Shown one piece after another: positions 51 to 49,311 of a stretch of DNA of 64,000 bases. This stretch comes from Mayamaea pseudoterrestris (Eukaryota), in assembly GCA_027923505.1 (NCBI GenBank), contig BROI01000002.1, positions 682,001 to 746,000 of the forward strand, written 5' to 3'. How positions within the stretch are numbered: the stretch's first letter is position 1; every line of letters starts with the position of its first letter. The translations under genes and the position numbers were made by a program. The notes beneath the pieces are model-generated. The model made no database searches. It was not told the origin of the DNA and was given only the letters and a program-made list of their open reading frames with translations.

Positions 51-66
51 TGACATCGTACCGGTT
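51..66 (+). promoter_or_regulatory. Recurrent promoter motif TGACATCGTACCGGTT upstream of the HCAR-like gene
   Basis: 15/16 match to the copies at 15335 and 20273; about 60 bp before the ATG. Confidence 0.55.
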
Positions 67-125
67 CTCAAGTTCGGTCCATCGGTTCCCGCAACTTTTT
101 TTCACCATGGTGCAAATTTGCGACA

Positions 126-1631
126 ATGCAAAGCACCAGATCGCTATTACATCTGCTTTTCCTTGCATTACTTATATCCTGTGATTGTTATGGTGTACTT
201 GGATTCATTGTTTGTTCAAAATGGCTGGAATTTGGCATCAAATCATTGAATAATCACCGTCTTGCAGCTTCCTTTCAACCACTGGAGTCATCCACCGACT
301 GGCCGCTAAAGTTTCCGGCCAAGGAGCATTGCTCCAAGTGCGGACTCTGCGAAACGAGCTTTATAAAACATGTAAAGGACGCTTGCGCGTTTCTCGAGCC
401 ATCGCCAGCAACGAGTGGCAGTCGAATGGATGAGCTGGAATTCCAAGTTCATGGACGAGGCCGAAAGCTAAATGACATGGTTTGGAAGGATAGTAAAGAT
501 GATAACAACAATCAGCTAGCTGAAGAGGCGAGGTTTGGTGTCATGCATGAACCCATGAAGCTCGCAAAAGGCCGAATCGAGGATGCGCAATGGACCGGGC
601 TAGTGACTGGTATTGCTCTCGCAATGCTTGAAGCCAATCAAGTCGATGCCGTCGTTTGCATTGCAGCGTCAGACTCTAACTGGAACGAACCCGAACCAAT
701 CATTGCCAAGACTAAAGAGGAAGTTCTCCGTGGGCGCGGTGTCAAGCCCGCACTGGCGCCGTCGTTGAAAGTATTGGACGAGGTGCAGGCTGATCCGACG
801 ATTCGTCGCTTGCTCTTTTGCGGCGTTGGCTGCGCGGTGCAAGCCTTTCGCGCCGTACAGCATCGCGTAAAATTGGATCAAGTCTATGTGCTTGGAACAA
901 ACTGCGCCGATAATAGTCCGACACCGGAAGCGGCGGATCGTTTTGTCAAGACGGCACTTGACATTGACCAAGGCGCACGCAAATACGAGTTTATGCAGGA
1001 CTTTCGCGTTCATGTCAAGACGGATAATACTTATCTTAAAAAGCCATATTTTTGCTTGCCAGGCACAGTGGCGGAAGCATCCATTGCCAAGTCTTGTCGA
1101 GCCTGCTTTGACTATACCAATGGGCTTGCCGACGTCGTGGTTGGCTACATGGGAGCGCCACTCGAAGCAGACCGGCGCATGGATCAGTCGCTGCAGACTC
1201 TAACAATTCGCAATGAGCGAGGCGCAACCATAGTGGAGACTGCCATTCAAGCAGGTTATGTAACAATAGACGGCTTGGCTATGGCAAGCGGATCGCACGA
1301 ATTATTGGCCATGGCGACAACGGAATCGGATGTCTTGGTGCAGGCCATGCTTGGCGGCAACGTTCCCGCATTTGGCATGCCACTTTGGCTTGGCGAGTTG
1401 CTTGCTTTAGTGGTGCAAAAGCTAGGTCCCAAGGGCGTCAGCTTTGCGCGATACAGCATTGATTATCATATACTGCGAAACTACTTGCATGTTGTCAACG
1501 AATGGGGCGAGGAACGTACTCGTCGGCTCATGCCCGACTTTAGCCGAGTCATTGTGGATCACTATATGGCCATGCCGAATCGGAAACTACAGAATTTGCG
1601 AAATCAAATTGTAAACAGAAAGATTATGTAA
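126..1631 (+). CDS. HCAR: 7-hydroxymethyl chlorophyll a reductase-like / F420-hydrogenase beta (FrhB) family Fe-S flavoprotein, plastid-targeted; probable in-frame intron 193..267
   Basis: Motifs PAKEHCSKCGLC, CAFL, AQWTGLV, GVKP, CGVGC, LGTNC, YEFMQD and CRACFDYTNGLAD..VGYMG match the HCAR/BciB family. Removing the 75-nt GT..AG segment gives a signal peptide followed by CYA|SFQP, an ASAF-like cleavage motif. Confidence 0.85.
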   Translation: MQSTRSLLHLLFLALLISCDCYGVLGFIVCSKWLEFGIKSLNNHRLAASFQPLESSTDWPLKFPAKEHCSKCGLCETSFIKHVKDACAFLEPSPATSGSRMDELEFQVHGRGRKLNDMVWKDSKDDNNNQLAEEARFGVMHEPMKLAKGRIEDAQWTGLVTGIALAMLEANQVDAVVCIAASDSNWNEPEPIIAKTKEEVLRGRGVKPALAPSLKVLDEVQADPTIRRLLFCGVGCAVQAFRAVQHRVKLDQVYVLGTNCADNSPTPEAADRFVKTALDIDQGARKYEFMQDFRVHVKTDNTYLKKPYFCLPGTVAEASIAKSCRACFDYTNGLADVVVGYMGAPLEADRRMDQSLQTLTIRNERGATIVETAIQAGYVTIDGLAMASGSHELLAMATTESDVLVQAMLGGNVPAFGMPLWLGELLALVVQKLGPKGVSFARYSIDYHILRNYLHVVNEWGEERTRRLMPDFSRVIVDHYMAMPNRKLQNLRNQIVNRKIM

Positions 1632-1664
1632 CTTAGCACAGACTACGGCACTTTACGTAATCGT

Positions 1665-3827: not shown

Positions 3828-4148
3828 GGTAGCTGCTAGTAGACTCTTCTACTTGATCGTCTTTTGCATTAATTGAAAGCTACTAGTCACGTTGTTTTGA
3901 CATCCTCCATTCGACTTCGATATCAACAAGCTTCGCATCTCGTTCCATGGCGCGGCTGGATGATCGGATGAACCGGTGCGACGTCTTATCGGCTGATGGA
4001 CAGACGCTCGTCGGTGGCGGCCCTTGATTTTTTCTCCCCGCATTGCAGATTGTTCTTTGAAAGCATTAAGCAACACTACGCTTCACTGCGCATCGCATAT
4101 ACCGTACACACAATTCACTCTCTCTCTATATCTATACAGATTCTCAGT

Positions 4149-4697
4149 ATGAGATCACTCACAGAGGACGAAACCAAGACACTCTTTCTCAAGCTCTCGG
4201 AATACATTGGCAAAAACATTGAGCGCCTCATCAACCGCACCGATGAGCGACACTACTTTCGCATCATGAAGGGCGATCGCGTCTACTATTTATCAGAGTC
4301 GCTCCTCAAGGCAGCCACGAGTGTGAGTCGCGACAATCTACTGCACGTTGGAACATGTTTCGGTAAATTCAGCAAGTCGGGCAAGTTTCGGTTGCATACC
4401 ACGGCGCTGGAGTACTTGGCGCAGTACTGCAAGTACAAGGTGTGGCTCAAGCCGTCGGCGGAAATGAGCTTTTTGTATGGTAATCACGTCACCAAGAGTG
4501 GATTGGCGCGCATGACGGAGGCAACGCCGCAGTATGCTGGATGCATTGTATTCAACATGGCGGATATTCCGCTGGGGTTTGGAGTGGCGGCGCAAAGTAC
4601 TGATCATTGTCAGCAGTTGGATCCGACTGGTAACGTGGTACTACATCAAGCTGATATTGGAGAGTACTTGCGTGGGCTGGAGGATGATATGTTTTGA
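4149..4697 (+). CDS. NIP7: 60S ribosome subunit biogenesis protein NIP7 (PUA domain)
   Basis: [54 protein letters not shown] and [10 protein letters not shown]. The start is placed at the ATG at 4149, not the longer ORF start. Confidence 0.95.
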
Positions 4698-5176
4698 GTA
4701 AATTAGAAACGCTCGAGGTTAATGGATGGGGCTGGACGCTGGACCACAACGATTGAGACGATACAGGGCTTGATCGCAGGCCACATTTCGCCGTTTTTAA
4801 ACAGCGATGACAAAAAGCATTGTTGCATACATTTATTCATACATCTTTTTGTGAATTGATGCGATTATTAATTGCTTGTAGACGCTTCGCAAAGTTCGTC
4901 GAATCTCCTGCACTCGTGTACCGAATTCATTTTCTGCTGGCGTAGCTTAAGCTGATTTCATTCGATCATGAGGATGTACAATGATAGTCAGTCTCTGGGT
5001 TACTCAAATTTTCCGCTGCGAGCTTAGGTATCCCCTTTGGTGAGACTGCTAGCTAACACAACCTTGACCCTATCAAAGGCGCACCGCATCCGTTTCCAAA
5101 TTCAAAGAACACGACGAGGCGCGCCAAGCCGTCACAACTTCATCATCATCTCGCATGTATATTGTTTTGCTGCATC

Positions 5177-6765
5177 ATGATGGATCCAAACCCAGAGACG
5201 CAGCAACTGCTATCTGCAGCAAATGGAGAATGTTTAGAGCCAAACGAGACCGAACTATTGGATGAAAAGATGACGGATGCATCGTCGCTCGACAATTCGC
5301 AGCAAGGAAAGACGACGGTCGCTCAAACCGTATTGAACCTCATGAAGACTTGCATGGGATCTGGTATGTATACAGATGAGTTAAGAACAGTGGAGTCAAT
5401 TTTATTGCTGTTGGTGTTTCTGATGAGATTTCCTTTATTCCCCATGTTTCTGCTTGCTCGTCGTCAGGCGTCTTGGCGCTCAGCTTTGCCTGTCAGCAAG
5501 GAGGTTCCTTGCTCTTTTGTTTCGGTCTTCCAGCCATTGCCCTGTGGAACGTTTACGCTGTCCATCGATTGGTCCTTTGCTTGAATCTCATTTCTGAAAA
5601 GAAGGCAGCTGATGATGGTTCAAACAGCAACGACAATGGCACGAATGAAGTGGAATCGCAGCAACAGCAGCAGCACGCACAAGCAGCATCTCGACTTCGA
5701 CGACCAACATCGAGCCCATCCTCCAAGCAGCTGACAGAAGCGTTCCTTTCACCATCGGATGAACAGCTACTTCCTTCTGCAGGAGTATCGACAATGGGAC
5801 GTGTCGCCTGGCATGCGTTTGGACCGGTCGGTTTGCAACTACTGGACGTTTCCATGCTCTTTCTGTTGGTTGGAATCATTGTTGCATACGTTGCCGGCAG
5901 TATTACATTCTTGGGCGATACTCCATTCACGACAAAGTCATCGCTACTTGATGGTATGATCTGCTCGTCAATCATGGCGCTCATTTCCTTGGTGCCGCAC
6001 GTTGGACATCTTTCCTGGGTTTCGGCTAGTGGCTTGCTAGTGTTGCTGGGCACCATGGGAGTCATTGCTGGCTACGGTTTCAAGGATTTGTCAACAGCCA
6101 GCAATACACTATCATTTACTACCATTCCGCTTCTACCAGTTTCAGTGACTGGAGTCAGTCACTTGTTTGGGATTGCCGTCTTTTCCTTTGGTGTTGCTCC
6201 TTTGACCTATACATTTCAGTCTTCCATGCAACACCCGGTGAAAATGGTCCCAGCCACTTGCGTTGCCCTTTCGTTAACGTCCATTTGCTATGTTTTGATT
6301 GGAGTTGGCATGCTTCTCTGCTATCCAAACTTGCAGGGCGACTTGCTGCACGAATTGCCATCGCACGGTTGGCTGCCAGTACTGACGCGACTGGCCATGG
6401 TGTGGGTCTGCATCATGACGGCTCCGCTACTCATCATTCCTTGCAGTGAATTGTTGGAAGGCAAGTGGCAAGTGCGCAAGTCAAATGTGGCAGCGCTGCG
6501 ATGCATCATTTGCTTGGCTGCTGTGTTTGTCGCCATTTGCATGCCAAGCTTTGTACAAGTGCTAGCGCTGGTTGGATGCGCCTGCGTCGGCTTGGTGGGC
6601 TTTTGCCTTCCGCCACTCTTTCACTTGCGTCTTTCCTCGGCACATCGCGAATATGTTTCACATCAAACAAGCACTTGGGTGCTGGATACCGTCATGCTCA
6701 CGTGGGGCGTGGGTGTCACTTTGCTGAGCACGTACTATACGTTCCAGCGGGTGCGGCACGAGTAG
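5177..6765 (+). CDS. Amino acid transporter, AAAP/Aa_trans family (SLC36/SLC38-like); intron 5364..5467
   Basis: The splice joins NLMKTCMGS|GVLALSFA, the family TM1 motif. About 11 hydrophobic segments follow, plus SMQHP and a C-terminal LPPLFHL. Confidence 0.85.
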
Positions 6766-7181
6766 ATGGATGTTTCCAACGATGGCTTTGTACGAATAGT
6801 GTACACTTTTTACATTCGATTACGATATTTAAATCGGTCATTCCTGCTGCGCAAAAAATTAAAAATAGCTGATTATTTGTGCTTTCTTTATCCGTCGGCA
6901 CAAAAAGTCAATATTAGTTGACAATGCTAGCTAGATGAGATGCGGTCAATCGCTGTCCTGGCCAAGGGGTTATATTATTGTCTCCCTTGCCTTGCGCTGT
7001 TTAAGGGCTCTCACCTACCGGTAGGTTCAAACTCATCTCACGCCTTCGTTAGCCTGAGTCGTGTTTCGCAGTTGCGGTCCGACACGCACCTCATCGTCGC
7101 TCGCCACAATGACGGTCCACCATAATCGTGCCGCTGTCCAAGACTTGACGCAGGTACTGTACAATACAATACAAGACGAGC

Positions 7182-9036
7182 ATGCCACCCCAAACAACAG
7201 GACCAAAGCCCCTTTCCATAGAACCTATCAGCAACAATAATGATGAATCATCCGATGAACCAACCTTTATCAACGCCTCGGCGGACCGCAGTTTACTCAC
7301 ACTCAAGCGGACGATGCTACTATCACCCGACTACTACGAGGATCCCGTCCGACGACGAGAATGGATGCGACCCTACTGGCTGGGATCTGGCTTATTCATG
7401 ATTTTGCTAGCCTTTTGGATTTTGGATTCGCTCAAGGATCCCATTTTTGGTCAATTGGTGGATGGCAAGCTTGAAATACATCAACCGCCGGCCAAGGTGT
7501 TTAGCGTATGTACGACACTGGCTATCGTATGTTTCTTGGAGTATATATCGAACGAGCGTCAAAAGCAGCAACGGCAGGAAAAGGAGCGATCCCATGAAGA
7601 CATTTTGAGCGGCGGAGGACAGTGGTCGACCATGACGTATGGGCGGTCCCAGCAATTTGCGACTGCCGAAGATACGGCTGTTTCTGGAAGTATTTTCATC
7701 TCTATTGGAGTTCCATATTGTATTGTTTTTGGAATTATGGCGTACTTGCTGCAATTTCATTCCACTGTGGTGTCATCGCTGTCATCCAAGCAGCAGCAAG
7801 CGGAGAATGCTGCCAATGCAAGCGGCACCAATGTCATGACTCACGAAACCTTGTGGCATGTCATTGGGTATATTTGGTATGCAGCTATTGAGTCGTTTGG
7901 AAGCATTGCCGTGGCAACCTTTTGGTCCTACGTGAACTCGACGCTGTCTCTAGAGGACGCAGAAAAGTACTATGGATCAATCATTGGAGTGGCTCAGCTT
8001 GGCGCAATCATTGGAAGCACGGTGCGTTGTCGACATTGTACGAGCAACGAGCAAAGCAAATTATGTCATAGTTTTCCACTCTCTCACTCTTCTTTGTCAC
8101 CCGCAGATGGTGACGACGCATGTTTGGACGCCCATCACGCTTGTCATATTGAGCTGCCTGGTCATTTTACTGCACATTATCGCCATGCGAATGTACTGTC
8201 ACCGATTCGCACCAACGACGCAGCACCACGAGGAGCCCACCTTTGCCGACACGGAGGAAGCAACCGTATGGTCTGGCGTCGCTCTTATTTTGAAGCACAA
8301 TTACGTGTTGCTCATCCTTGGTGTGTCGTGTCTGTACGAAGTGTCACTCACTTGCCTCAACTATCAAATGACTTTGCTTGGCTGGTCGCGTTTCGAAGAG
8401 ACGCCACATGAGGGCATGAGCTTTACGCAATTCATGGGACACTACGGACAACTTGTCAATTTGTTTAGTTTGGCGCTGTCATCGTTAATATTTCCAGCGC
8501 TCATTCGGCGGTTTGGGTTGAGGCAAACACTGCGTATCTTTCCATCTTTGTTACTGCTGGTCAACTTTATTGCCTTTGGAGCGATACCAGGGAACTTGGC
8601 GGTCTTGTTCTTGTCCATGTCGGTGCTAAAGGCCATGACATATAGCATTCACGATCCGTCCAAAGAGATACTGTACCTGCCAACGAGTAATGCCATCAAA
8701 TTTAAAAGCAAGTTTTGGATTGACGTCGTTGGTGCCCGCATTGCCAAGGCGTGTGGAAGCAGCATTAATCGGATCGCTGGTAGCGTTGATCGAAGCATTC
8801 GAATCGCCAGCTTTCCAAGCCTAGTGACGGCTATAGGGTTGCTTTATGTATGCTATCAAGTGGGAATTGAGTTTGATAGGCTCATTGCCAGCGAGTCAAT
8901 CGTTGGCGTCACAGGCTTCCATGCTACAAAGCGAGAGTATAATGTTGTCGACGAGGATGGAAATTTGGTCGACAACGAGGACGATGCTGATATCTTCGAG
9001 GATCCAGTGACTCCCGACGGCAGAGAAAGAATATAA
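7182..9036 (+). CDS. Nucleotide transporter-like protein (NTT/TLC ATP:ADP antiporter family); intron 8022..8106
   Basis: LDSLKDP, FWSYVN..AEKYY, and KAMTYSIHDPSKEILYLP..KFKSKFWIDVVGARIAKACGS are NTT/TLC signatures. A GT..CAG intron joins the two ORFs in frame (GST|MVT). Confidence 0.8.
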
Positions 9037-9168
9037 ATTTTAGAAAAGGGTCTCATTCTGCTAATGTACTTGTACTACGAGTCGAGCGCGTTTAATGATC
9101 ATGTATACTACTCATTTAGTTATTTGAGCCTGCTGCTTTCCCTTGATTCACAATATGCCTCCGCAAAT

Positions 9169-15100: not shown

Positions 15101-15334
15101 GCGATAATATATTACTGGGCGAGTAGATTGCAAATCAACTTTTTTAATTGAGTTGGGAGTACAAGGGAGCGTCTCCTCTTGGGACAATGCATCCACAAGC
15201 AACTTTCGAACTGACCAAAAATGTATTAGCGATGGCGATCGTTGTGAAAAAGGGTCACGCAACCTCCATGCGATCATGAAAAGACAAAATAAAAGTATCT
15301 TTGCGTACGCGTCCAACAGTTTCCTTCGTTTGAG

Positions 15335-15350
15335 AACCGGTACGACGTCA
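15335..15350 (-). promoter_or_regulatory. Recurrent promoter motif TGACGTCGTACCGGTT between the divergent GT92-like and AKR genes
   Basis: Identical 16-mer to 20273..20288. Confidence 0.55.
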
Positions 15351-15679
15351 TGGATCTTACGACGACGTGTGTGAGCGACCTCGACCATGGCAAAGAATTC
15401 AGGGATAGGAGAGGGTCTCATCCAGCATACAGCAGTAGAGGAAGCAGAACTGGCTGGCTGTGCCTATCAATAAATGATTGAGCAAAAATTGGCTGTGTTA
15501 CTTCTTTCTTGGCCTTGAAGATTCAAAGAAAATTCGTTCACAAAAGTGGCTGTCGTTGCGGTCGAATCCTTTGTCGTCTCTTGTTGTTCCTAAAAGTAAT
15601 TCTACCTACTATTGGTACGTGTCGTCGACTGATATACAACGTCGATAATAGTTGGCATTCAGGCAACTTCTTTATACTA

Positions 15680-16609
15680 ATGATAGCAGTCTCCAACGAC
15701 AACTTCACCCAGAGACCGGACGAGCTAATAGCTAATGAACGGATGTTTGTTTCGGACCGTCCCTACCTCATCTACGGCGCTTCTTCAAAAAATGAACGAA
15801 CTGCAGAGCTTGTCCACTTGGCGATCAAGTGTGGTTTTCGCTATATAGATACAGCTTGCTTTCCCAAAAAGTACAATGAACCAGGTGTTGGCGAGGGATG
15901 GATTGCTGCGGCGCGCAATTTGACCTTGACTCGATCCGAGCTGTTTCTCCAGAAAAAATTTACTTCGTCATGCTACCACGATCCCGACAATCGACCCTAT
16001 AGTGATTCTGGTTCATTGGCAGACAAGGTTAGGAAGTCATTAGAAGTCTCGTTGCGCAATCTCCAGACAGACTACGTTGATTCCCTGTTAATGCACGCAC
16101 CCGAGAAAACGTTGGAAGAGACCATGGTGGTATGGCGAACGATGGAAAGCCTTGTCGACGAAAACAAGGTCCGAAATATTGGTGTCAGCAACTTATATGA
16201 TGTCGAATTCTTCAAAGCCTTTTACGAAAAGGCACGCATCAAGCCATGGGCTGTCCAGAACCGCTTTTACGCTAAAACCAACTTTGATACTGATTTGCGC
16301 GCCTTTTTGAAGAGCGAGGACATAATATATCAGCCTTTTTGGATCTTGTCAGCCAATAAGGATGCTCTGACTACCGAAATAGCCGAGGTTATGGCCAATG
16401 CCAAAGGCCTTACACCACAAACGTTGATGTACGCCTGTCTCGTGCAGCTCGGCTACGCGACGCCACTCGATGGAACGACCAATCTCGAGCACATGCTGGA
16501 GGATGTAGCAGTCATGCAACGATTACAGAAAGGCGAACGGTTCTTTACCGAAGAAGAGATGCATGAATTTGCAAAACTATTGGGAATGCCCCATGTCGAG
16601 TCATTCTAG
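15680..16609 (+). CDS. Aldo/keto reductase family protein
   Basis: GFRYIDTA, YNE, LFLQKKF, SLRNLQTDYVDSLLMH, VRNIGVSN and VQNRF; the D/Y/K/H tetrad is present. The start is uncertain (15680 or 15743). Confidence 0.85.
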   Translation: MIAVSNDNFTQRPDELIANERMFVSDRPYLIYGASSKNERTAELVHLAIKCGFRYIDTACFPKKYNEPGVGEGWIAAARNLTLTRSELFLQKKFTSSCYHDPDNRPYSDSGSLADKVRKSLEVSLRNLQTDYVDSLLMHAPEKTLEETMVVWRTMESLVDENKVRNIGVSNLYDVEFFKAFYEKARIKPWAVQNRFYAKTNFDTDLRAFLKSEDIIYQPFWILSANKDALTTEIAEVMANAKGLTPQTLMYACLVQLGYATPLDGTTNLEHMLEDVAVMQRLQKGERFFTEEEMHEFAKLLGMPHVESF

Positions 16610-17902: not shown

Positions 17903-20191
17903 CTAGGCGGCAGCCACTTCGGCGCCATCCACCACAAATAGCAATGCCGAGTCATTGACCACATCGCCAGCCTTGAAATATATTTGAGCGACAGTGCCAT
18001 CACAGGGAGCCACAATTGAATGCTCCATCTTCATGGCTTCCATGACCACGACGACTTGCCCTTGACAAACCTCATCGCCAACTGAGAATAGGACGCGACT
18101 AATCGTTCCCGGCATGGGAGACTTGACCGTGCCTTCGCCAATGGCTGCGACATGATCAAGCGCACCATGATCCATTGGATTCTTAATGTCCAAAGCAAAA
18201 ACGTATTCTTTCATATTCTGTGGCCACATGCGCACACGAACCACACCATCCTCTGTGCGTAATGCCGTCTCTAGTTGGATGCGTCGCGTATTGTTCACAA
18301 CAACCTCCATCTTGCCATCCAAGTCGAGGGATCCACAAACATAAATTGGCGTAGCTTCTCCCGCTACATACATCTCAAATGACCCGTCGCGGTTGCTGAC
18401 ACATTCAATCGAGCCTGCGCCATCGCCTTCCAGCGAAAGTGTGCGGCGAGCCCGACCCGATTCGCCTCCCATGCGCCATGAGCCGGACCGCGATGACCAA
18501 GGACCGACTGAATCAGAATCATCTACACCAACTCGCTGCTCGAGTAGCAGCATGGCAGCAAAGGCACCAATCGCTTGTGCCATGGTTCCAGGAACTTGGT
18601 CTTCGAACATTTTAACATCGTCGGCATAATCCTCCAAAAAGCCAGTATTTACCTGACCAGCTTTACCAAACGTTGGATGTTGCGCGCATTTGATAAGGAA
18701 ATCAATATTGGTAGGAACTCCGGCAATTTGGTAATTCTTTAACGCCATGACCAGCCTGTCTAGGGCTGCATGGCGTGTGGGGCCGTGCACTATGAGCTTG
18801 GAGATCATTGGGTCATAGTATACAGAAATGTCTTGTCCAGCTTGTAAACCCGTATCGACGCGAACGCCGTCGGAGCTGATACCCGTGTTGATCACAGCGG
18901 GAGGATTGTGTACCCAGACATTGCCAGTGGCAGGAAGAAATCCCCGCGCTGGATTCTCAGCGTAGATGCGAGCTTCAAAGGCATGCCCGGTTGCGCCAAT
19001 GTCGTCCTGATTTGTAATCGGCAGTGTTTGACCAGCTGCAATGCGGAGTTGCCATTCAACGAGATCAATCCCCGTAATCAGCTCTGTGATTGGATGCTCT
19101 ACTTGCAGACGCGTGTTCATTTCGCAGAAGTAAAATTTGTCTTCCTCCGTTGTATCTAACAAAAATTCGACAGTTCCAGCATTGACGTAGCCCACTGCTG
19201 ATGCCGCTCGCTTTCCCATTTCCCCAAGACGCCGCCTCAGCTCAGGGTCCAAGTCTGACGCTGGCGCTTCTTCAATAACCTTTTGGTGCCGGCGCTGTAG
19301 GCTGCAGTCACGTTCAAACAGATGAACAACATTGCCATGCGTGTCAGCAATCACTTGAACCTCAACATGCCGAGGACGCACCAAGTACTTTTCTAGCAAG
19401 ACCCGCGAATCACCAAACGAAGCTTGGCTCTCGCGCTGACAAGACTCCAGAGCAGCCTTGAATTCTCCTTCATTCCAAACCAGTCGCATTCCCTTGCCAC
19501 CTCCACCCATGACAGCCTTGATCAATAGTGGAAATCCAATCTCAACGGCCCGACCCAGCAAGTAGTCGGCATCCTGCGTGTCATCGCCATAGTAGCCAGG
19601 CGTCGTTGGTACACCAGCCGCTTCCATGATAGCCTTGGATTGGGACTTGCTGCCCATGGCATTGATTGCCGACGAGGGTGGACCGACGAATCGCATTCCA
19701 GCATCCGTGACGGCCTCACAAAAGCCTGCATTTTCCGACAAGAAACCGTAGCCCTGTGATTATGGATACAACAAAGCATTAGACCTGTCAGTATTAAGAA
19801 GATGTCAACCAACGAATCTTTCAATATAGGAACGTACTGGATGAATCGCAGCCGCTCCAGATTGACTGGCAATTTCCAAAACCTCGTTCTGCAGCAGATA
19901 CGACTCGCGCGGCGTCGGCCCAGATCCAATCAAGTATGCCTCATCAGCCATGCGAGCATGCAAAGCATTAGGTCCATCGGCAACCGAATAGATTGCAACA
20001 GTCGGAATTCCAAGTTTGCGACACGTTCGAAGCACTCGACAGGCAATTTCGCCGCGATTCGCCACGAGGACCTTTTGTAGAATGGGTTCGGAAATAGCGG
20101 CGCCAGCTGATAGGAGTCGTCGACGGCTGAGTGCATTGTTAAGCAGTAGAGACTGCTGCTGCTTCAAAGCTCGACTGAGTAGAGTCGCCAT
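17903..20191 (-). CDS. MCCC1: Methylcrotonoyl-CoA carboxylase subunit alpha, mitochondrial; intron 19754..19837
   Basis: Mitochondrial-type presequence, KVLVANRGEIACR, AIHP|GYGFLSEN restored by splicing, GGGGKGMR, ERDCSLQRRHQK, EMNTRLQVEHP and the biotinyl motif EAMKM. Confidence 0.9.
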
Positions 20192-20272
20192 GGTGTCAGG
20201 CTTGTTCGGAATCGAAAAGTGGCGACGAAAGAACAAGTGCCAAAAGACGATCGAGATTGTGTCATGCATGAA

Positions 20273-20288
20273 AACCGGTACGACGTCA
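20273..20288 (-). promoter_or_regulatory. Recurrent promoter motif TGACGTCGTACCGGTT upstream of MCCC1
   Basis: Identical 16-mer to 15335..15350; about 80 bp before the ATG. Confidence 0.55.
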
Positions 20289-20624
20289 AAAGGATCCAAA
20301 TTACCGCACGATCCATATAGAGCGGCTCTCCTCCTAATGCAAGCTGACTGCTAGAGTTCAAACATCATTTCAAGAAACAAAAGACAAGATGGAGGCTGAA
20401 CTGCAGAGCTTTCTTCGCCGTACGATAAATGCGGGAGGAACCGAGCTACACTGTTACTATTTACGATGTCTCAAAGACTCATCTACCGGTAGTATGCTAA
20501 AGTGAAGGCTCATTGACCTGATTGTCATTGTAATGGAGTATTTACTACTCGTTAAAGTGGACTTTAAGTGTACGACGGCATGCCTCTGCGCCATAGCATG
20601 TCGCCTGTCAAGCAATGCCACAAA

Positions 20625-21224: not shown

Positions 21225-22765
21225 ATGAAGTCTTTGAAGGATAACGAAGGAGCTCCTGCGACGGCCATTTCTCCCAACACGGTCGCAGGCTTTGGAGATT
21301 CTCCCGAAGTCTTCCCTCTGCTTCCAAAGCAGATGCAATGGACGACACGGAAAGCATCAAGCAAGTCGATTCGGACCTCGAACCCAATTCGAGCCATTGT
21401 TGATCCTATTGTCAAATCGATTCGCTCGGGGGAGGAGCGAGGCGACGGCAAGAACCATATTTCACTTGCGGTACGCGAAAACGAAATGAACGTGCGTATA
21501 TTTCGAAGTGACACAAGTCTCTGACACGTCATTATAACTCTCTCCTCGTGTTACAGCTCGGAGACCCAACGGCTGCTGGGAATCTACCGCCATGTCCGGT
21601 TGCGATTGAGGCCGTCAATGCGGCTCTCCATTCACCGCTCCACGCGGCAGGCTACGTGAATGCTTGTGGACTACCAACCGCACGCGAGGCCATTGCCGCG
21701 TACCATTCAAGCAATCATCACATTGTACATGCGGATCAAGTCATTGTCGCTTGCGGATGCTCGGGAGCGCTGGAGCTTGCCTTGACGGCATTGCTCGACA
21801 CGGATAGCATTCTCCTCGTACCACAACCCGGCTTTCCGCTCTATCAGGTGATTGCCGAGTCGCATGGAGCAAAAAGTATTCACTATCGCCTCAAGGCGGA
21901 TTCAAGTTGGGAATGCGACTTGGAACATATGCAGGACCTTGTTGATGAGCATGGTTCCAGAATCAGTGGTGTTCTCGTCAACAACCCATCGAATCCGACT
22001 GGCTCAGTCTTTTCGCTGAAACATCTTCAAGATATTGTGACTTTTTGCCAAGAGAATCAGCTGCCAATCGTTGCGGATGAAGTATATGGAGACATTACAT
22101 TCGCTGGGCATGCATTTCATCCAATGGCCAATGTGGCTGCAGCCATGGGACGACACGTCCCTGTTATTACGGCGTCTGGCATTGGCAAGCAATTTTTGTT
22201 GCCTGGCTGGAGAGTCGGATGGATTGTTTTTCAGGATAAGTAAGTAAAACGCGATGTTGGCTGTCGAAACGCCTTTTTGAATGTATCTCACCAATATTTA
22301 CTCAGCATTTTTCACTCAATGCGTGACGTCGAAGATGGCGCAAAGCGCCTTGCACAAGTCGTTCTTGGAGCATCTCACTTGGCCCAGGTGGCAGTGCCGG
22401 CCTTGCTAGACCCATTCAATGACCGCTTACTGAGCTGGAAGACCGGCCTGCGTGGATTACTCGAGTCGCAGGCAAACTTTGTTTGCGCCAAACTTGGAAC
22501 GGTTCCGGGCCTTGAGGTGATCAATCCCGGCGGGGCCATGTATGCGCTGGTGCGAATGGACAGTAGTGTTTTTGATGAAACGATTCCTGATGATATTGCA
22601 TTTAGTCAGGCTCTCATGTTGGAGGAAAACGTGTTTGTTTTACCCGGCTCGTGCTTTGGAGTGGAAAATGTCTTTCGCATTGTATTTTGCGCCCCGATTG
22701 TCGTCTTGGACGAAGCCACTGAACGAATTCAAACATTTTGCCACCGCCATTCGTCGCTTGGATAA
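21225..22765 (+). CDS. TAT: Tyrosine/nicotianamine aminotransferase (class I PLP enzyme); introns 21471..21556 and 22240..22305
   Basis: NPIRAIVD, ISLA|LGDP, PGFPLY, NNPSNPTG, ADEVY and SGIGKQFLLPGWRVGW (PLP Lys). The splices restore the frame. Confidence 0.9.
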
Positions 22766-27993: not shown

Positions 27994-28607
27994 GGTTCCG
28001 TATGTGGTCCTCGTCCGAAAGTCACCCTCTGCAGCATTGGAGCCGAGCGTTTCGCCGCGCGTTTTTGCAAGGCGCAGGAGGCTTCCTTTCGAGTCAGATT
28101 GGCTCCGTGTGTAGAGCCAGGTACTGACATCACGTGGGCTTATGAACTCGACGAAATTGGGGAGGTGCCGGCGTGCATGAAGAATAGTTACTTAAGCGCT
28201 GTGGGCGAAGTCTGCGTATCAATCGTCAAGTTGACTTTAAATGACGTGGCATTAGCCAATGAAATTGCTCTATTCAGCAAAGTACTTGCGGGACCACGGA
28301 TTCACCATGGTAATCAATGAAACGACGATCATCTATAACGAACCTATCTGCAGACGAATCTACTTTGACAATATAAATGTAATTACAAAATTTCCTGAGA
28401 TGTTACTCGTGTCCGTTCAGATCCGCAAGAGGTCGTGACGGCCATTGGTCCGGAACTGACGTAAACGAGCCAATGGATGGCTGTCAAACCCTCGCGCGGA
28501 ACGTTCGGTGAAATTCCATGCTCCCGTTTTGTGATCCTTGGCGTATGCTTCCTTTGATTTGTCGTCGGCATGGGGGTCGCTGGTTCGCCTATAGTGGCGG
28601 CAGTGAC

Positions 28608-32114: not shown

Positions 32115-32237
32115 TCTTGTCCACGCCATGCATTAGATCATCTAAGCAACTTTCAATTTTTAGCTGAATTGCCACCAAGCGAAGGCCATATAGATGTACA
32201 AAGACGTTTAACTATGCATAAACTAGATAAAACGCTT

Positions 32238-33864: not shown

Positions 33865-33925
33865 GGTCCACAGTCCACGGCCACGGCCATGGTCCACGAT
33901 CCACGCTTCACGGTTCACGTTCCAT
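33865..33925. repeat. Degenerate tandem 6-7-bp repeat (about 9 copies of GGTCCAC-like units) in a divergent promoter
   Basis: The sequence reads ggtccac agtccac ggccac ggccat ggtccac gatccac gcttcac ggttcac gttccat. Confidence 0.7.
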
Positions 33926-33968
33926 AATGCATGGCGCATGGCTCATACTGTAGACGAAAATATCATCA

Positions 33969-35080: not shown

Positions 35081-35335
35081 TCGTGACGGCTCTGCAAACT
35101 CAACACACTCACATACTAGGTTAGCGCTACAAGAACTGGATCAATGCACGATTAATCTTTGGTGGATATTGTTGATCTTGTATCTGGCTCTTGTTGTTGC
35201 TCCTGGGATTTTACTTTGACAGCCAAGATCTTGTGGTGCGGAGTGCGGAATACACACAACCAACGACATTCATCAGCACGGCATTCAAATAAATATTATT
35301 ATAAATAATGCATATTATCACTGTCAAAAACGTGT

Positions 35336-36352: not shown

Positions 36353-36493
36353 TGCTTCAGTGCTTTGCCGCTAGCGGTTCATGTTGTAATGATGACGATG
36401 GACGACAAAGATCCAGCGGCGTGGGTCTGTTAATGTGCGTTGATCGCATTCGCGCATCTGGCAAGCGACCCGGCGTGTGAGTCGTGCAAAGAA

Positions 36494-36507
36494 GACGTCA
36501 TACCGGT
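36494..36507 (+). promoter_or_regulatory. Recurrent promoter motif variant GACGTCATACCGGT between the divergent hydrolase and ATP-grasp genes
   Basis: 13/14 match to the core motif. Confidence 0.5.
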
Positions 36508-37049
36508 ACTGTAAATGGACTGAAACAGCTGCCCTTGGGGTTCCGAACACATGGATTGGGCGTCACCAACGAATCTTTCGCGAGAACGAATCTGCAGTTC
36601 CACGACTGCGGTTGATCGGGCTCGACCCGAGTGACAACCGTTGCTCTCATCGCACAACAAACAAGCCGTCGTAACCATGCTGCCCAATTTGTTCAAGAAT
36701 CGATCCGCATTGACGGACGATGATCAAGAAAGAGGCATTGTCATCAAGGCGTTGCCCGTCTCGGAGTTGCAAGCGTCTCAAAGCAATGCAACATTGGCGG
36801 ATGAAATCTCGGTTCTCAGCGACGATATTGCTCCATGTTTTCAGGTTCACGTGTGGGACAAACGATCGGGATACTCTGACTATATCAAAAAGGGATTGCG
36901 CGAGCTGAAACGAGACACTAGCAATGTCATAATGCGTCATAATGCTGTTTGAAAGTCCATCGTCAAGCAACCCCGACAGCGCATTTTACAACAGTCAAGT
37001 CTTCAAGTTTCACCTTTCACCGTTGGCACCAACGAATCCAGCCGTGACA

Positions 37050-38072: not shown

Positions 38073-38100
38073 ATGCCTCTTGTTCAAGTATTTATATATA

Positions 38101-39549: not shown

Positions 39550-39957
39550 GACAAGCTATCAAGAAGCTGCTTAACATACACCATTTTTCACGCTCGTGGA
39601 TGTCGCTCATTGAACAGCAATGTCGTACCGCTAGCGGAAAGGTTTTATTGACTTATTTCACTGGTTTAGCATGAGTCATTGGTTGACTTTCGAGCCCTTA
39701 CAAAAATATCAAGACTGTTTTGAGATAAGCCCATTGCAGTTGCCCAGTGAGGCCTAATCTGACTCATCTACGTGTTTCCACTTGCGTTGTCACTTTTCTA
39801 TGTACCAGTTATGTGCCCGCCGACAGCCAACCACGTCTTCACTTTCGTTTTCTCTTTTCCTTTCCTCACAAACTCTAAAAACACGACCACGAACAAGTTG
39901 CACAGGCAGGCTCAAGTTGCCCAAAAGTCCTCATACAGTAACGTTCTCCAATCAGCC

Positions 39958-40605: not shown

Positions 40606-40838
40606 ATGTAAATAACAAACAATTTTGATTAACCTTCAGTAGCTGCTACGTATGCCGCATCATAAAGGTCTGAATTGGCCACGCCTGCTTGCTCTAGAAT
40701 GGTGAAAGTGGATGCGATATATGAATCACGGCCATAGCTATCCGACTATTTGACGCAGCCGCAAATTTGCAAACCAGATTTTTTTGGTCACAACAAATGA
40801 GCTTTATAAGTTATTTAATCTTCGTGTATCTTTACAAC

Positions 40839-42365
40839 TTAGCTAGTCACCACCAGAGAGTTACCATTGCCTACCGACAGGCCAGGATCAGCTTGGTATG
40901 GCAATACACAATTGTCCAATGTTTGATTGCCTAGCTGCATAATGTCTTCCCCCTTCAGCCATCGCTCAAGCCCACGGTTGAAAAACATGAGCTCGCGTAG
41001 CAGATCCGACGACGAACGCCGCATGGCGACAATGGCCGAGCGTGCGCTCGACACCAGCGCCAAGTCTTGAAAGAATCCCATGCCAGCGTACGGCCCATGT
41101 TCTTGCAACCGACTGGGGCTTGCTTCGTCATGCTGCGCAAACAGTATGCTGTGGTTGCGTTGCTCGAGCCATTTCGTCAAACTTGCAACGGTGCATGGCC
41201 GGTCGCTCATGATTCGCACCTGCACGGGCAGCGCTGCATCTCCGTCAGTACGCTGCTCCATGATTTTGGTTAAACACTTGATTTCACGACTAATGTCACA
41301 ACCATCGAGCCCTTGGAAGCGATGTCGACTATGCAAACCAACAGTGTAGTATTGCTGGTTCACTTGCTCCAGCAATGGCGGTACAAACCGTGTCGCCGCC
41401 CTTGTGAATTGAAAAATATACTTGTGTAGCATACCATACATGAAATCTGGACCAAGCGAATACAAGTCGCGGACTCGTTGTCGCGCCCAGTCACTCTTGA
41501 GTTGCGTCTCCTGCACCAGCCTGTCTCCAAGCTGCACCATCTTCATGTAGCAAAATGGGAAAATGACCAGCGGTTGCGGATACTTTGATACTAAATCAAC
41601 ACCATACAAGTCTTGGTAGTTGTCTGGAAGCGGAAAGCGCGGACTATCGCGACGAAAGCCCATCATGGTGGCGTGGAACGGAACCATGTAGGCTTCGGAA
41701 ACCGTGGTTTGATGGTTGTCATTGGATGACGTTGTTGCACTTTCAAACAAGTGGCTCCAATCGTCATACATTGGCATCCATGGCGCTTTGGTTAATATTT
41801 GGTCGCATTCACATTGCTCATTCGACAATTTGCAAAAGGCCTTGGTATAGTAGTCCAATCCATACTGCAAACACATTTCCTTGGTAAAGTACTTGTACAG
41901 AACGGTGCGATTGGTGAGTATGGACCAAAGGACGCCGTTGAAGAATCGATGCGCATTGTTGCCGCCCGACAGTGGACAAAGGTGAAAGGCAATGGCGTAC
42001 TTGCGTCGCTCCGGATGAGGATCATTTTGGAGCGCTTGCACGGAATGTTGCTGCATGTATTCGTGCATGACTTTGATTGGAAGTGGCAGTGGATTGTTGT
42101 AGACGGCAGATGCATTGAGCGGATAGTTGAATGGTTCATGTGACGGAGTATAATTGCTGCATACATTGGACGTCTCTGATAAAGATGGTGTTGCTAATGG
42201 AGGTGCCCTTGCGTTTGCATTCGACTGCTGCTGCGAAGTTTTCAAGCTTCGTCGCAGCCTTTCGCTTGATGTCAGCATCCAAACGACCGACAGGAATGGC
42301 AGTATTGACAGCACTATTTTCGTCTTTGCTGACGAGATCTTTTGCGTCTTTTTTGTAATCTGCAT
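40839..42365 (-). CDS. Type II membrane fucosyltransferase-like protein (GT-B; GT23/GT37-like)
   Basis: N-terminal TM, GN...RF......ILTNR, VGLHSRH, IMSD, FQDLALVS and RSSS motifs. Confidence 0.65.
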   Translation of the reverse strand: MQITKKTQKISSAKTKIVLSILPFLSVVWMLTSSERLRRSLKTSQQQSNANARAPPLATPSLSETSNVCSNYTPSHEPFNYPLNASAVYNNPLPLPIKVMHEYMQQHSVQALQNDPHPERRKYAIAFHLCPLSGGNNAHRFFNGVLWSILTNRTVLYKYFTKEMCLQYGLDYYTKAFCKLSNEQCECDQILTKAPWMPMYDDWSHLFESATTSSNDNHQTTVSEAYMVPFHATMMGFRRDSPRFPLPDNYQDLYGVDLVSKYPQPLVIFPFCYMKMVQLGDRLVQETQLKSDWARQRVRDLYSLGPDFMYGMLHKYIFQFTRAATRFVPPLLEQVNQQYYTVGLHSRHRFQGLDGCDISREIKCLTKIMEQRTDGDAALPVQVRIMSDRPCTVASLTKWLEQRNHSILFAQHDEASPSRLQEHGPYAGMGFFQDLALVSSARSAIVAMRRSSSDLLRELMFFNRGLERWLKGEDIMQLGNQTLDNCVLPYQADPGLSVGNGNSLVVTS

Positions 42366-42469
42366 GGTCAAGCAGTCAATGGTGATCAATGTTACTACAG
42401 CTGGGTAGTGCAACGGCCAAGTAGAGGTCCATGGTCAAGGATTTGCAACGACTTTTTGGCGACACCGAA

Positions 42470-42509
42470 TGACGTCACTAAGTTCCTCCGTCACTACCGG
42501 TACGACTCA
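42470..42509. promoter_or_regulatory. TGACGTCA palindrome plus motif variant ACCGGTACGACTCA between the divergent fucosyltransferase-like and S6K genes
   Basis: CRE-like palindrome at 42470..42477, and a one-base-deletion variant of the motif at 42496..42509. Confidence 0.45.
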
Positions 42510-42769
42510 TTCGTTCCGTCAACGCATGCCATTGACCAACGAACCGACTGGCCATTCATCAAGCTGTCGAAACTGGTCCTTGAGTTGAGCGATGAAAGGA
42601 TCCAAGAGTCGAGTATTTCGGGGCTTGAGCATTGGGTAGTTTCGCGCTTTAACTTATAGATTGCAAAGCATATACTTGTCAGATGCTGCTCCGTCGCCGT
42701 CGCAGAATTTCACCAAGCTAACAGCAAACACATAGAGAGCAATCTCCCTTATTTGCTTAACGTCTCATC

Positions 42770-45193
42770 ATGTCGTGTTTGGATGCTTGCGATCAGTTTG
42801 ACGATGACGGTCCGTTTGCTGCGGCAAGCGGTCCTGTGGAGGGCGACGTTGTCGACGAATTCCATACCGCGCAAGTCATGCTGGACGAGGATACGAACGA
42901 CAATGAAACGACAATTAATGCAAACAGTCTTAATGAGTTAAACATTGCTACTGGAGAAAATGATTGCTCGCCGCAAGAGGCGAGAGATGGCAGCGTAGAT
43001 GTAGATAAAAATCTTCTTCATCCGGGCAATGCTTGCCGGAATGAGTCCATTCCAGTTGGTAGCAAGCGCTTCGTTCAGCCCAATGACTTTCAACTGTTAA
43101 AGGTCATTGGCATGGGAGCTTTTGGAAAGGTCCTTCAAGTCCGAAACAAGCACAATCAGCAAGTCTTGGCCATGAAGGTTATTTCCAAGCGCTTATTGAA
43201 TCGCAAGGAAGGCTACGTGGAAAACGTGCGCGCCGAGCGTGACATTTTGACGCGGGTCAAGCATCCTTTTGTCGTTCAAATGCATTGCAGCTTTCAAACC
43301 AAGGATAAATTGTTCATCATTATGGATTATCTTGCCGGTGGCGAGTTGTTTCTGCGACTGGGTCGGGAAGGAATTTTTCTGGAAAAGACGGCGGCCTTTT
43401 ACCTGGCGGAAATTATACTAGCGCTTGATCACTTGCATTGCCGAAACATTTTACATCGTGACTTGGTACGTTGCCGTAAAACATCCATGATGCTGTTCAC
43501 TGTGGTACAGTTTCTCACCCAAACTGCACCTGGCCCCACTTATTAGAAACCAGAGAATATATTGCTCGGAAGCGATGGACACTTGGTGCTCACTGACTTT
43601 GGATTGGCAAAGCAGTTTGAAATAACAGGATTTCACCAAGATGATGAAAGGGCTCTAACCGTCTGCGGCACTCAGGTATGCTTTCGTTGGGCGATTGAGT
43701 GTGTAACAATATGTCCTTGATCTGACCATCCCATTTCGAATGCAGGAGTACATGGCTCCAGAAATGGTCGCTCGGCAGGGGTACGGACGAGCCGCCGACT
43801 ACTGGTCGCTCGGTAAGTTAAATACGCGGCAGCGCCTGTTCTTGTATTGCTGCTTCTTAGGGACATTGCTTTTCATTATGTTTCTTCAGGATGCATTGCT
43901 TACGAAATGCTAGAGGGCGATCCTCCGTTTCGAAGCAAACTTGGAGCAAAGGATCTGTTTCGAAAGATCATGACTGAAAAGGTAAAAATGCCTGTAGGTT
44001 CATCGTCCGCAGCGCATAAGCTGCTTAAAGGCCTCTTACACCGCAATCCGCAACAACGATGGGGAGTAACTAAAAGCACTACATTTGAAGTCGGTGGAGT
44101 GTCGGCAATACAGCAGGCTGCCTTTTTTCAAGGTTTGGATTGGGATAAGTTGGAACATAAAGAGGTCGATCCCCCGGACACATTCGAAATCGCAAAAGAC
44201 GATGACACTCGCCATTTTCATGACGAGTTTACAGGCATGACTCTCCCTCGCTCCGTCATTATCATGACACGCGACGAGTACAAGCCGAAGCATGTCAAAT
44301 CTGATTGCTTTCGTGGATTCTCCTTCGTCCAAGATGACTTTCATCTGCCAGAGCGTGACGAAGAAGAGGTCAAACAGTATTGGAATTCGGAGGAAGGCGA
44401 TTGCGAGTCTGTTTCAGAGTGCGCGTCGAGCAAATGCGACAATGACCAAGTTCCGCTCGAACTTGTATCGCCCGACAAGAAGAAACGACCTCCTCGCAAG
44501 AAAAAGAAGAAAATGAATATCGCGGAAACTGCAGAACAGCCGCTTGTTAATCCTATATCTCAGACGGTACCTGCTGATTCTCTGGATATGCCACCTTCTT
44601 CCGTCGTTATTTCTACATCGACGCTTGAAACTGCAACGAGCATTACTGCCTTGGACACTGTATTTGAAGCGGGACCCGCGGCTCCATTCACCGATGACGC
44701 ATCTACTTCTATTAAGCCGCACAATCCACCGCAATCTGCGGCAGTTATGCCATCTCTGTTCAAACAAATGGCTGCAACGACCATTGATTCTGTCCAGCAA
44801 CACAGCAAACCTCAGCCTGTTGGCCAAAATAACATGACATCCGCCAAGACAATCTTGTCGGCTAGCGCACCAACGTGGGTCACAAGAATGTCGCAGCCGC
44901 GGCAGACTGCACTTGTAACACAACATGGCTGGCGACAAACTGCAGCCGTTCCGACACCTCCTCCGCCGCCCGCCGCATCACCAGCCTCGTCGGATTGGAC
45001 GCAGCATCGCATGAGTCCGCGTAAGAGCCCACATTTGTCAACTACGATTCGCCAAGTTTCCTCCATGGCGTCGGCTCCAGTTTGGCCAACACTTGCGGTG
45101 AAAGACCCTCCTTTACCAAGTCAAACGATCAAGCCGCTGTTGAATCCGGTCGGTCCGGTGACAAAACTACAGGGCGCTTGGGCGAAACGATGA
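42770..45193 (+). CDS. S6K: Ribosomal protein S6 kinase-like AGC kinase; introns 43466..43546, 43676..43745 and 43813..43889
   Basis: GMGAFGKV, HRDL|KPEN, TDFGLAK, TVCGTQ|EYMAPE, DYWSL|GC and hydrophobic motif FRGFSF. All splices are GT-AG and in frame. Confidence 0.9.
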
Positions 45194-45547
45194 GTTCTGC
45201 ACTGGTGGAAGGCCTTTATCGGTTGCTCATTGCTAACGAAAGTTATTCACGAGGTCGATAGGTGCTTCACCTGTTTAGCAGTATTTGTTTACGTGTTGTA
45301 TATGCATTACTCAATATTTTTTTAGGCGCTTATTCAACTGCGGTATGACTGACAGTGAGCGCAAGGACAATTCATTCTTGTCGTACCGGCTCTCGAAGCG
45401 ACACGATCGCATTGGCGGTTTCACGTTTGACTATGGCCACAACTTTCGCTCGTCGTCAATCCCATGCTGGGCCAACTGCTCACATAAATTTGTGAAGCCT
45501 GAAAACGATAGTTGCATTGATATTTCCATCTATTTCTATCACTTTGG

Positions 45548-49276: not shown

Positions 49277-49311
<35 letters not shown>

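Follow-up and report, generated by a model that had tools for sequence, protein, structure and literature searches.

The window, by which we mean the whole 64-kb stretch of diatom DNA analysed here, hosts roughly 45 ORF-defined genes, and in about eight of its intergenic regions the same short word recurs. The family consists of seven composite and three core-only members. A search of the window recovered all six copies of the original prediction where it had placed them, and added a seventh. The copy at 51..71 (plus strand, TGACATCGTACCGGTTCTCAA) has its ACCGGT 66 nt upstream of the ORF ATG at 126, which begins a gene with a FrhB/HCAR-like Pfam assignment. The copy at 15330..15350 (minus strand, TGACGTCGTACCGGTTCTCAA) precedes a GT2/GT92-like gene, 241 nt ahead of its annotated ATG at 15100, and that at 20269..20288 (minus strand, TGACGTCGTACCGGTTTTCA) lies upstream of a biotin-carboxylase gene (Pfam) with in-frame ATGs at 20269 and then 20191. 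A 590-bp divergent intergenic region contains a hybrid copy (36493..36511, plus strand, AGACGTCATACCGGTACTG) that includes the full palindrome TACCGGTA; this palindrome is also complete in a TRE-like variant (42495..42509, minus strand, TGAGTCGTACCGGTA), 136 nt upstream of the annotated ATG at 42365. The partial copy at 45379..45395 (plus strand, TGTCGTACCGGCTCTCG) is found about 160 nt upstream of the ORF ATG at 45548 of a Fic-domain gene. The seventh copy is degenerate (3968..3986, minus strand, AGACGTCGCACCGGTTCAT) and is located in a 321-bp divergent intergenic region, between a 720-aa gene (ATG 3827, minus strand) and NIP7 (ATG 4149, plus strand). A related word, GTCGTACCGCTAGCGG (39622..39637, plus strand), also occupies a divergent intergenic region; it carries GTCGTACCG as the family does and ends in a different palindrome.

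The sequence relationships proposed for these copies hold up well. The identical 16-mer TGACGTCGTACCGGTT is present at 15335-15350 and 20273-20288, on the minus strand in both cases, with GGATC 1 and 3 nt further along the plus strand. Positions 51-66, which start TGACATCG, are indeed a 15/16 copy and 36494-36507 a 13/14 copy, the one-deletion variant at 42496-42509 reads TGAGTCGTACCGGT on the minus strand and is shorter by one base, and the partial copy reads TGTCGTACCGG at 45379-45389. Across three copies 19-21 nt are nearly invariant, and the three best copies have the 3′ extension TT(C/T)TCA in common. The family as a whole is heterogeneous, with the distal TGAC missing in some copies and GTC in others, which we count against the reading preferred below. 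The first half is TGACGTC in two composite copies, AGACGTC in two, TGACATC in one and TGAGTC in one, and is lacking from the copy at 45379. The TGACATC belongs to copy 51, one of the three best, where it breaks the ACGT core; this too counts against our reading. The GGATC word lies upstream of the three best copies at a variable spacing of 2-8 nt, and does not accompany the other four composite copies.

Both parts of the element can also be found on their own. The 12-bp palindrome CCTACCGGTAGG (7014..7025) lies between two plus-strand genes, 165 nt before the ATG at 7182. The palindrome CTACCGGTAG (20483..20492) is located 48 nt before the ATG at 20533, and occupies the same divergent intergenic region as the copy at 20269-20288. 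A plus-strand TACCGGT (47770..47776) is found in a 2.3-kb gene-poor gap, where it adjoins GC-rich CGACCTTTCG repeats. These three core-only sites (7016-7023, 20484-20491 and 47770-47776) are additions to the original list. The palindrome TGACGTCA stands alone at 42470..42477, 18 nt from the core at 42495 and on its other side. In ORF-free DNA, then, each half has two stand-alone sites, at 7016 and 20484 for TACCGGTA and at 42470 and 56751 for TGACGTCA. The exact TACCGGTA sites of the window are those at 7016, 20484, 36501 and 42495, and TACCGGT is present on one strand at five more.

The excess of these words over chance is large, as counted in a single 64-kb window with about a dozen sites and with shuffles as the control. 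Allowing up to two mismatches, the 15-mer TGACRTCRTACCGGT has five matches against a shuffle mean of 0.34. The 18-mer, with up to three mismatches, also has five (0.02 in shuffles), GACGTC-NN-ACCGGT (GACGTCNNACCGGT) has four (0.00), the palindrome TACCGGTA has four exact sites (0.14) and GTCGTACCG has six (0.29), five of which are outside coding sequence. For none of these five words did any of 100 shuffles reach the observed count. When all words in the ORF-free DNA (14.5 kb, 22.7% of the window) were counted without bias, ACCGGT, ACCGGTA and TACCGGTA ranked top among 2034, 6147 and 10787 words for k = 6, 7 and 8, respectively. The same ORF-free DNA holds 12 of the 32 TGACGT sites. GACGTC alone is not enriched in the window (15 sites against 15.75 in shuffles), a result that we count against our preferred reading.

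The sites are concentrated in 5′ and intergenic DNA. Of the 13 strand occurrences of TACCGGT, 10 fall in the 22.7% of the window that is ORF-free, and 9 of the 12 ACCGGT sites are 5′ or intergenic when 15336 is counted as upstream of its annotated ATG and 47771 as non-coding, its 117-aa ORF being unsupported. None of these nine lies between a convergent gene pair. The predicted start-codon distance of 60-250 bp holds approximately: ACCGGT is about 48-241 nt from the closest ATG on its strand, either annotated or of an ORF, with the exception of 20274, which is 10 nt from the first in-frame ATG and 88 nt from the next. The tandem copies at 51 and 45379, the only cases informative on orientation, both point to the downstream gene. 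Among the copies in divergent regions (n = 5), that at 36493 points away from the nearer ATG and that at 3972 sits near the middle.

The copy at 15336 is upstream of ATG 15100 of a catalogued protein and within a long ORF. In other haplotypes the stretch of long ORF around this site carries frame-breaking indels. The block 15259-15402 is kept in other haplotypes or strains with one mismatch and one gap, the indels there start 12 nt upstream of this motif, and 15403-15680 has diverged by more than 5%. The sequencing runs used were of two kinds: X1 and X2 are DNA of diverged haplotypes or strains, and the contigs of X3 and X4 are RNA-like, with GT..AG introns left out. The ends of the X3 and X4 contigs (15211 and 20173) are graph breaks, not transcript ends, and do not map transcription starts.

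The spacing between the two halves, which had been proposed to be fixed, is so in the window: GACGTC-NN-ACCGGT is exact in four copies, GACATC-GT-ACCGGT adds one, and the shorter TGAGTC variant retains the proximal register GTC-GT-ACCGGT. The suggested two-factor composite fits as well, because each half also stands alone in ORF-free DNA (TACCGGTA and TGACGTCA). The view of TGACGT as a bZIP or aureochrome core agrees with the ‘aureo box’ of aureochromes in the available text of the published work (PMC4937327). The putative link of the element to aureochromes or other bZIP factors is a resemblance of this half, and nothing beyond.

We propose, with a probability of about 0.6, that a transcription factor binds the element as a promoter-proximal site in a diatom of the raphid-pennate type, and that this site is composite in a subset of promoters. 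Since GACGTC alone is unenriched, the autonomous unit would be the palindromic core TACCGGT(A/T), and the CRE-like half a rigidly spaced add-on. In the promoter subset the core is lengthened on one side to GTCGTACCGGT, and then to TGACGTCGTACCGGTT(C/T)TCA, an extension that leaves exactly 2 bp between ACCGGT and a bZIP site resembling the CRE/aureo box. Protein binding and a two-factor model are what we infer from this arrangement; either a bZIP and a core-binding factor would sit side by side, or one factor would read the longer site.

Some features of the family would also suit a core-promoter element that determines where transcription starts, namely at a set distance downstream. The oriented 20-mer ends in TTCTCA, with an initiator-like TCA, and TT(C/T)TCA is present in the three best copies; both tandem copies (51 and 45379) face the downstream gene; and the core at 20485 is followed, 23 nt downstream, by GCTCATTG, a word similar to the INR form TCATT of oomycetes. 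Moreover, the available text of one study proposes an initiator-like word, TCAH+1W, for P. tricornutum (PMC4686930), although TCAHW is matched by only one of the three best copies. A core-promoter role fits poorly with a palindromic core that is found without oriented flanks and with ATG distances that range from 48 to 241 nt. In addition, the oomycete motif discussed below is, in the available texts, an upstream inverted repeat that lies outside the three core elements INR, FPR and DPEP near mapped starts, and we consider such a role unlikely here. Similarly unlikely, in our opinion, is one long site for a single multi-module protein, which would act as a general regulatory or boundary factor and hold short divergent promoters open. 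The 19-21 nearly invariant nucleotides, the recurrence of GTCGTACCG without the distal TGAC half and the location of five of the seven composite copies in short divergent intergenic regions would be expected of such a site, but the halves are found separately as perfect palindromes, typical of separate dimeric factors. The length change at 42495-42509 is of the CRE-to-TRE type, a classic variation of bZIP sites, and also argues against a single protein.

We give very little credence to a role as RNA, in which the motif would be transcribed and act in the 5′ UTR on translation or stability. The end of the copy at 20269-20288 is indeed separated by 5 nt from the first in-frame ATG of a long ORF, and all composite copies except 36493 share strand sense with a gene start less than 250 nt away. 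However, this long ORF has a second in-frame ATG, in a CACC context, 78 nt beyond the first, the core palindromes function in either orientation, and neither a structure nor an Rfam family turned up for the motif. Chance, a composition artefact or the relic of a dispersed repeat is highly improbable too, and the data from the window already refute it for the most part. Other parts of the window do contain single 19-20 nt pairs at 95%, and metagenomes hold chance matches to the 20-mer in coding DNA of bacteria, phages and diatoms; against this stand the 100 shuffles that never match the observed counts, the top rank of the core in ORF-free DNA, the unrelated flanks and the ten members of the family. 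Beyond about -12 to +14, identity among the copies compared is 0.06-0.34, versus 0.41-0.74 in the core, and a repeat search of the window returned only the 20-21 nt units. The flanks are unrelated, therefore a dispersed repeat or MITE relic is highly improbable.

The metagenome scan with the 20-mer gave 13 loci, three of which (L001, L003 and L008) are one sequence. Their GC content and an ORF overlay give most of them the appearance of coding DNA from bacteria or phages. Two loci, L005 and L007, were examined in full, and L005 is a diatom gene whose closest named relative is in Thalassiosira oceanica; here, the 20-mer codes for LLDIVPVLK within a conserved protein. On these grounds all of the metagenome matches were counted as chance. 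There was no independent 20-mer copy in non-coding diatom DNA among the 13 loci, which we list against our reading; the scan is uninformative on diatom intergenic DNA.

The core of our proposed binding site is a word that has already been predicted in oomycetes, a precedent that the original prediction did not draw on. As given in the available text of the studies, M94 is a predicted oomycete promoter motif identical to TACCGGTA (Roy et al. 2013, PMC3597505), motif-9, which precedes 1,284 genes, has the form of an inverted repeat (Seidl et al. 2012, PMC3520976), and streme-5 (ATACCGGTAT) of Plasmopara halstedii is upstream of 206 genes and was equated with motif-9, GTACCGGTA (PMC10031896). To the extent covered by these texts, the oomycete motif and the diatom core share an identical 8-bp palindrome, an over-representation upstream of genes (here window-wide only) and many functionally unrelated downstream genes. 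The oomycete motifs come from genome-wide analyses and have been linked with RXLR effector genes and with expression in infection or in germinated cysts, whereas the diatom core is from one 64-kb window; and the diatom composite has a fixed TGACGTC partner, whereas the same texts report none for the oomycete motifs. Nor do the available parts of the three studies name a binding factor. Text searches of diatom, Phaeodactylum and Nannochloropsis papers, excluding diatom supplementary tables, found no diatom description of the motif words.

Because three oomycete studies predicted the same word as an abundant promoter motif, the core is probably read by a dimeric factor common to stramenopiles. 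We infer homology with the oomycete motif from the identity of the cores, which could also be convergence on an 8-bp palindrome. A more ambitious version, which we offer tentatively and regard as rather unlikely, is that TACCGGTA may be an ancient stramenopile cis-element with one factor in oomycetes and diatoms, welded in diatoms at a rigid spacing of 2 bp to an aureo-box/CRE. Through such a 20-bp module, a bZIP responsive to light or cAMP would act at a sizeable share of promoters, but never without the general factor.

To our knowledge, few diatom cis-elements are known, and diatom promoter engineering mostly uses whole upstream regions. Synthetic diatom promoters may be assembled with the word as a compact module, and its composite form makes it possible to test whether bZIP or aureochrome factors cooperate at fixed spacing. 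As the core is common to oomycetes, it is also a concrete probe for a stramenopile-wide transcription factor, e.g. by DNA-affinity capture or DAP-seq.

Several other known systems bear comparison with the element. As in the CRE/aureo box (available text of PMC4937327), TGACGTC or GACGTC with an ACGT core is found in four composite copies. The one-base-shorter TGAGTC variant parallels CRE versus TRE sites. However, the CRE-like half here always abuts TACCGGT at 2 bp, which is not known to belong to any described bZIP site. The oomycete INR and FPR and the diatom initiator TCAH+1W are, in the available texts (PMC3599244, PMC4686930), likewise lineage-specific promoter words near start codons, and the 3′ TCA of the 20-mer resembles the INR and TCAH+1W initiator words. 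By the same texts those words are AT-rich, have an orientation and go with mapped transcription starts, whereas the core of our element is palindromic and GC-rich and its distance to the ATG varies. Readings of the core as an HSF, Myb, SBP or ETS-type site were rejected, as the consensus sequences of these do not match it. Two 8-bp palindromes of like form belong to other lineages and factor families, namely the Drosophila DRE (TATCGATA), a promoter-proximal housekeeping element recognised by DREF, and the Grainyhead site AACCGGTT, which TACCGGTT matches at seven of eight positions.

All six copies of the composite element listed in the original prediction were found at their places: TGACATCGTACCGGT at 51-65 (plus strand), TGACGTCGTACCGGT at both 15336-15350 and 20274-20288 (minus strand), AGACGTCATACCGGT at 36493-36507 (plus strand), TGAGTCGTACCGGTA at 42495-42509 (minus strand) and the partial copy TGTCGTACCGG at 45379-45389 (plus strand). 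An additional copy that had been missed, AGACGTCGCACCGGT, lies at 3972-3986 on the minus strand. In an oriented alignment the three best copies (those at 51, 15336 and 20274) agree over 20-21 nt, TGAC(G/A)TCGTACCGGTT(C/T)TCA. The chance control consisted of 100 shuffles per pattern, and all motif counts are for this one 64-kb window. The 15-mer with at most two mismatches occurs 5 times (shuffle mean 0.34), the 18-mer with at most three mismatches also 5 times (0.02) and GACGTCNNACCGGT 4 times (0.00); for none of these was the observed count reached in any shuffle. The observation is real, and both stronger and broader than first described.

The ACCGGT core also stands by itself. The window holds 12 ACCGGT sites, 9 of which read TACCGGT on one strand (a T before or an A after), and the full palindrome TACCGGTA is found at 7016, 20484, 36501 and 42495, compared with 0.14 occurrences in shuffles. 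The palindromes at 7016 (CCTACCGGTAGG) and 20484 (CTACCGGTAG) lack a TGACGTC partner. When all words in the 14.5 kb outside long ORFs were counted against a second-order background from that same DNA, ACCGGT, ACCGGTA and TACCGGTA ranked top at k = 6, 7 and 8, respectively. The printed P values of this count are too small, because palindromes are counted on both strands; the 4 sites of TACCGGTA in ORF-free DNA, against about 0.075 expected, are still extreme despite this. Of the 13 strand occurrences of TACCGGT, 10 fall within the 22.7% of the window that is ORF-free. Nine ACCGGT sites are in 5' or intergenic DNA (60, 3972, 7017, 15336, 20274, 20485, 36502, 42496 and 47771) and three are coding (5823, 9277 and 63472). 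Site 15336 is counted as non-coding since ATG 15100 is the start codon of the catalogued protein and other haplotypes carry frame-breaking indels (15139, 15286, 15362, 15365 and 15381), and site 47771 because its enclosing 117-aa ORF is unsupported, within a 2.3-kb gap. This stretch without a convincing gene (47644-49997) also contains GC-rich repeats of CGACCTTTCG, both inverted and direct, at 47780-47870 and 49866, adjoining a TACCGGT.

The CRE-like half behaves differently. The word GACGTC is found 15 times in the window, against 15.75 expected. Six of these sites are ORF-free (five by the ORF mask, plus 15344, which is upstream of an annotated ATG), and four of the six are composite copies. 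TGACGT has 12 of its 32 sites in ORF-free DNA, a weak excess. The bZIP-type half is therefore no general feature of these intergenic regions, and is distinctive only by its fixed 2-bp distance to ACCGGT. GTCGTACCG occurs 6 times (0.29 expected), five times in 5' or intergenic DNA and once in coding sequence (40393); as it stands without a distal TGAC at 45380 and 39622, an extended core may include the proximal GTC. In the copy at 42495-42509 TGAGTC replaces TGACGTC, while the GTC-GT-ACCGGT register is kept. TRE and CRE sites differ in length by this one base. A perfect TGACGTCA lies 18 nt from this core, on its other side, and a second stands alone at 56751. The interpretation in the original prediction is thus partly right: its fixed-spacing composite holds, with the involvement of a bZIP factor suggested by resemblance only.

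Distances were taken from ACCGGT to the closest start codon on the same strand. For the composite copies these are 66 nt for copy 60 (ORF ATG 126), 150 nt for copy 3972 (annotated ATG 3827), 241 nt for copy 15336 (annotated ATG 15100), 10 or 88 nt for copy 20274 (ORF ATGs 20269 or 20191), 136 nt for copy 42496 (annotated ATG 42365) and about 163 nt for copy 45385 (ORF ATG 45548). The cores at 20485 and 7017 are 48 and 165 nt from the ORF ATGs at 20533 and 7182. About 177 nt separate copy 3972 from a second start, that of NIP7 at 4149, and copy 36502 is 155 nt from an annotated opposite-strand gene start (36352) and 440 nt from a same-strand ORF. Five of the seven composite copies are in divergent intergenic regions and so give no verdict on orientation; both copies in tandem arrangements are oriented towards the downstream gene. 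None of the 9 non-coding ACCGGT sites lies between convergent genes, although the share of such DNA is too small for significance. The neighbours have no common function, and include an FrhB/HCAR-like enzyme, a glycosyltransferase, a biotin carboxylase, NIP7, an ATP-grasp enzyme, a kinase, a Fic protein and unknowns.

The window itself is gene-dense, with a G+C content of about 49% and ORFs of at least 100 aa covering 77%. Several of its ORFs match catalogued proteins of a 2.78-Mb contig exactly, and the named relatives of its GT2-like protein are in raphid pennate diatoms (Amphora coffeaeformis, 59%; Epithemia, 53%; Bacillariaceae sp., Seminavis and Nitzschia). Environmental contigs of up to 41 kb carry relatives with protein identities of at least 90%. 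Short GT..AG introns are skipped by RNA-like contigs from two public runs, which support introns at 5363-5466, 8021-8105, 15614-15711, 19753-19836 (minus strand), 21470-21555 and 22234-22305; the aldo-keto-reductase gene consequently has an exon upstream of 15613. TTCACCATGG provides a strong Kozak-like ATG upstream of a long ORF at 101-110 and 28301-28310. At the first site its frame differs from that of ATG 126. The word could mark an upstream ORF or a start that was set wrongly.

Several other words recur. GCTCATTG has 11 occurrences where shuffles give 4.06 (1211, 3284, 8880, 20508, 20678, 28855, 33668, 37048, 38778, 39605 and 45225), and it is similar to TCATT, a form of the oomycete initiator. 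The one at 20508 follows a TACCGGTA by 23 nt and precedes ATG 20533 by 25 nt. As 7 of the 11 are inside ORFs, the word is no more than a putative initiator. A second palindrome, CCGCTAGCGG, is confined to ORF-free DNA (36368-36377, 39628-39637 and, with one mismatch, 49758-49767). GTCCTTGA is found seven times in ORF-free DNA (34276, 42576, 43713 and 48062 on the plus strand; 48301, 48418 and 59470 on the minus strand) and never in ORFs, and may be another cis-element. The 8-mer CGCTAGCG is among the top words of ORF-free DNA, and CAG/CTG triplet runs (49273-49308 and elsewhere) are among its commonest.

What, then, is the element? Identity between copies is 0.41-0.74 in the core and 0.06-0.34 in the flanks, becoming random beyond about -12 to +14, a repeat search of the window returned only 20-21 nt units for these copies, and Rfam has no match anywhere in the window. 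The element is therefore a short motif and neither a dispersed repeat nor a known RNA gene. With the shuffle counts as they are, chance or a repeat relic is a very improbable source of the copies; an RNA element in the 5' UTR is just as hard to credit. Region 15259-15402, which bears the motif, is retained with one mismatch and one gap in contigs that stem from the DNA of other haplotypes or strains, and the adjoining 278 nt upstream (15403-15680) have diverged beyond the 95% threshold, with indels starting 12 nt from the motif; this footprint is weak, since conservation extends beyond the motif itself. The intergenic 15403-15680 is replaced, in one other haplotype or strain, by a same-length sequence more than 5% diverged, between flanks about 99% identical. 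The 20-mer of the best copies matched 13 metagenome loci, and in the sole diatom locus it is within a conserved protein-coding region. The matches look like chance in coding DNA, so the scan neither supports nor weakens the motif.

The most economical account, to which we give a probability of roughly 60% on the sequence evidence, is a predicted promoter-proximal transcription-factor site. TACCGGT(A/T) would be its autonomous unit, which in a subset of promoters would be coupled to a CRE-like site at rigid spacing. With the core-only palindromes alongside, we think a single long site read by one multi-module factor unlikely. We are equally doubtful of a core element that positions the start of transcription, given a location near start codons at offsets as unequal as 48 and 241 nt.

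Full-text literature on diatoms, Phaeodactylum and Nannochloropsis, supplements of diatom papers aside, returned nothing relevant on these words, and neither the core in a diatom nor its fusion to a CRE-like site seems to have been described. Diatom aureochromes 1a and 1c recognise the 'aureo box' TGACGT (PMC4937327). In the available parts of three oomycete papers the core is familiar. TACCGGTA is M94 among the high-confidence palindromic motifs of Phytophthora infestans (Roy et al. 2013, PMC3597505), where Table S1 gives P = 0.00012 for germinated-cyst promoters and marks two of the three columns on conservation 'yes'; 1,284 genes of Phytophthora are preceded by motif-9, an inverted repeat (Seidl et al. 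2012, PMC3520976); and in Plasmopara halstedii ATACCGGTAT, upstream of 206 genes, is equated with motif-9 GTACCGGTA (PMC10031896). These parts name neither a binding factor nor a TGACGTC partner. Oomycetes are stramenopiles, as diatoms are, and the core is already a known predicted motif there; it is not new to the stramenopiles.
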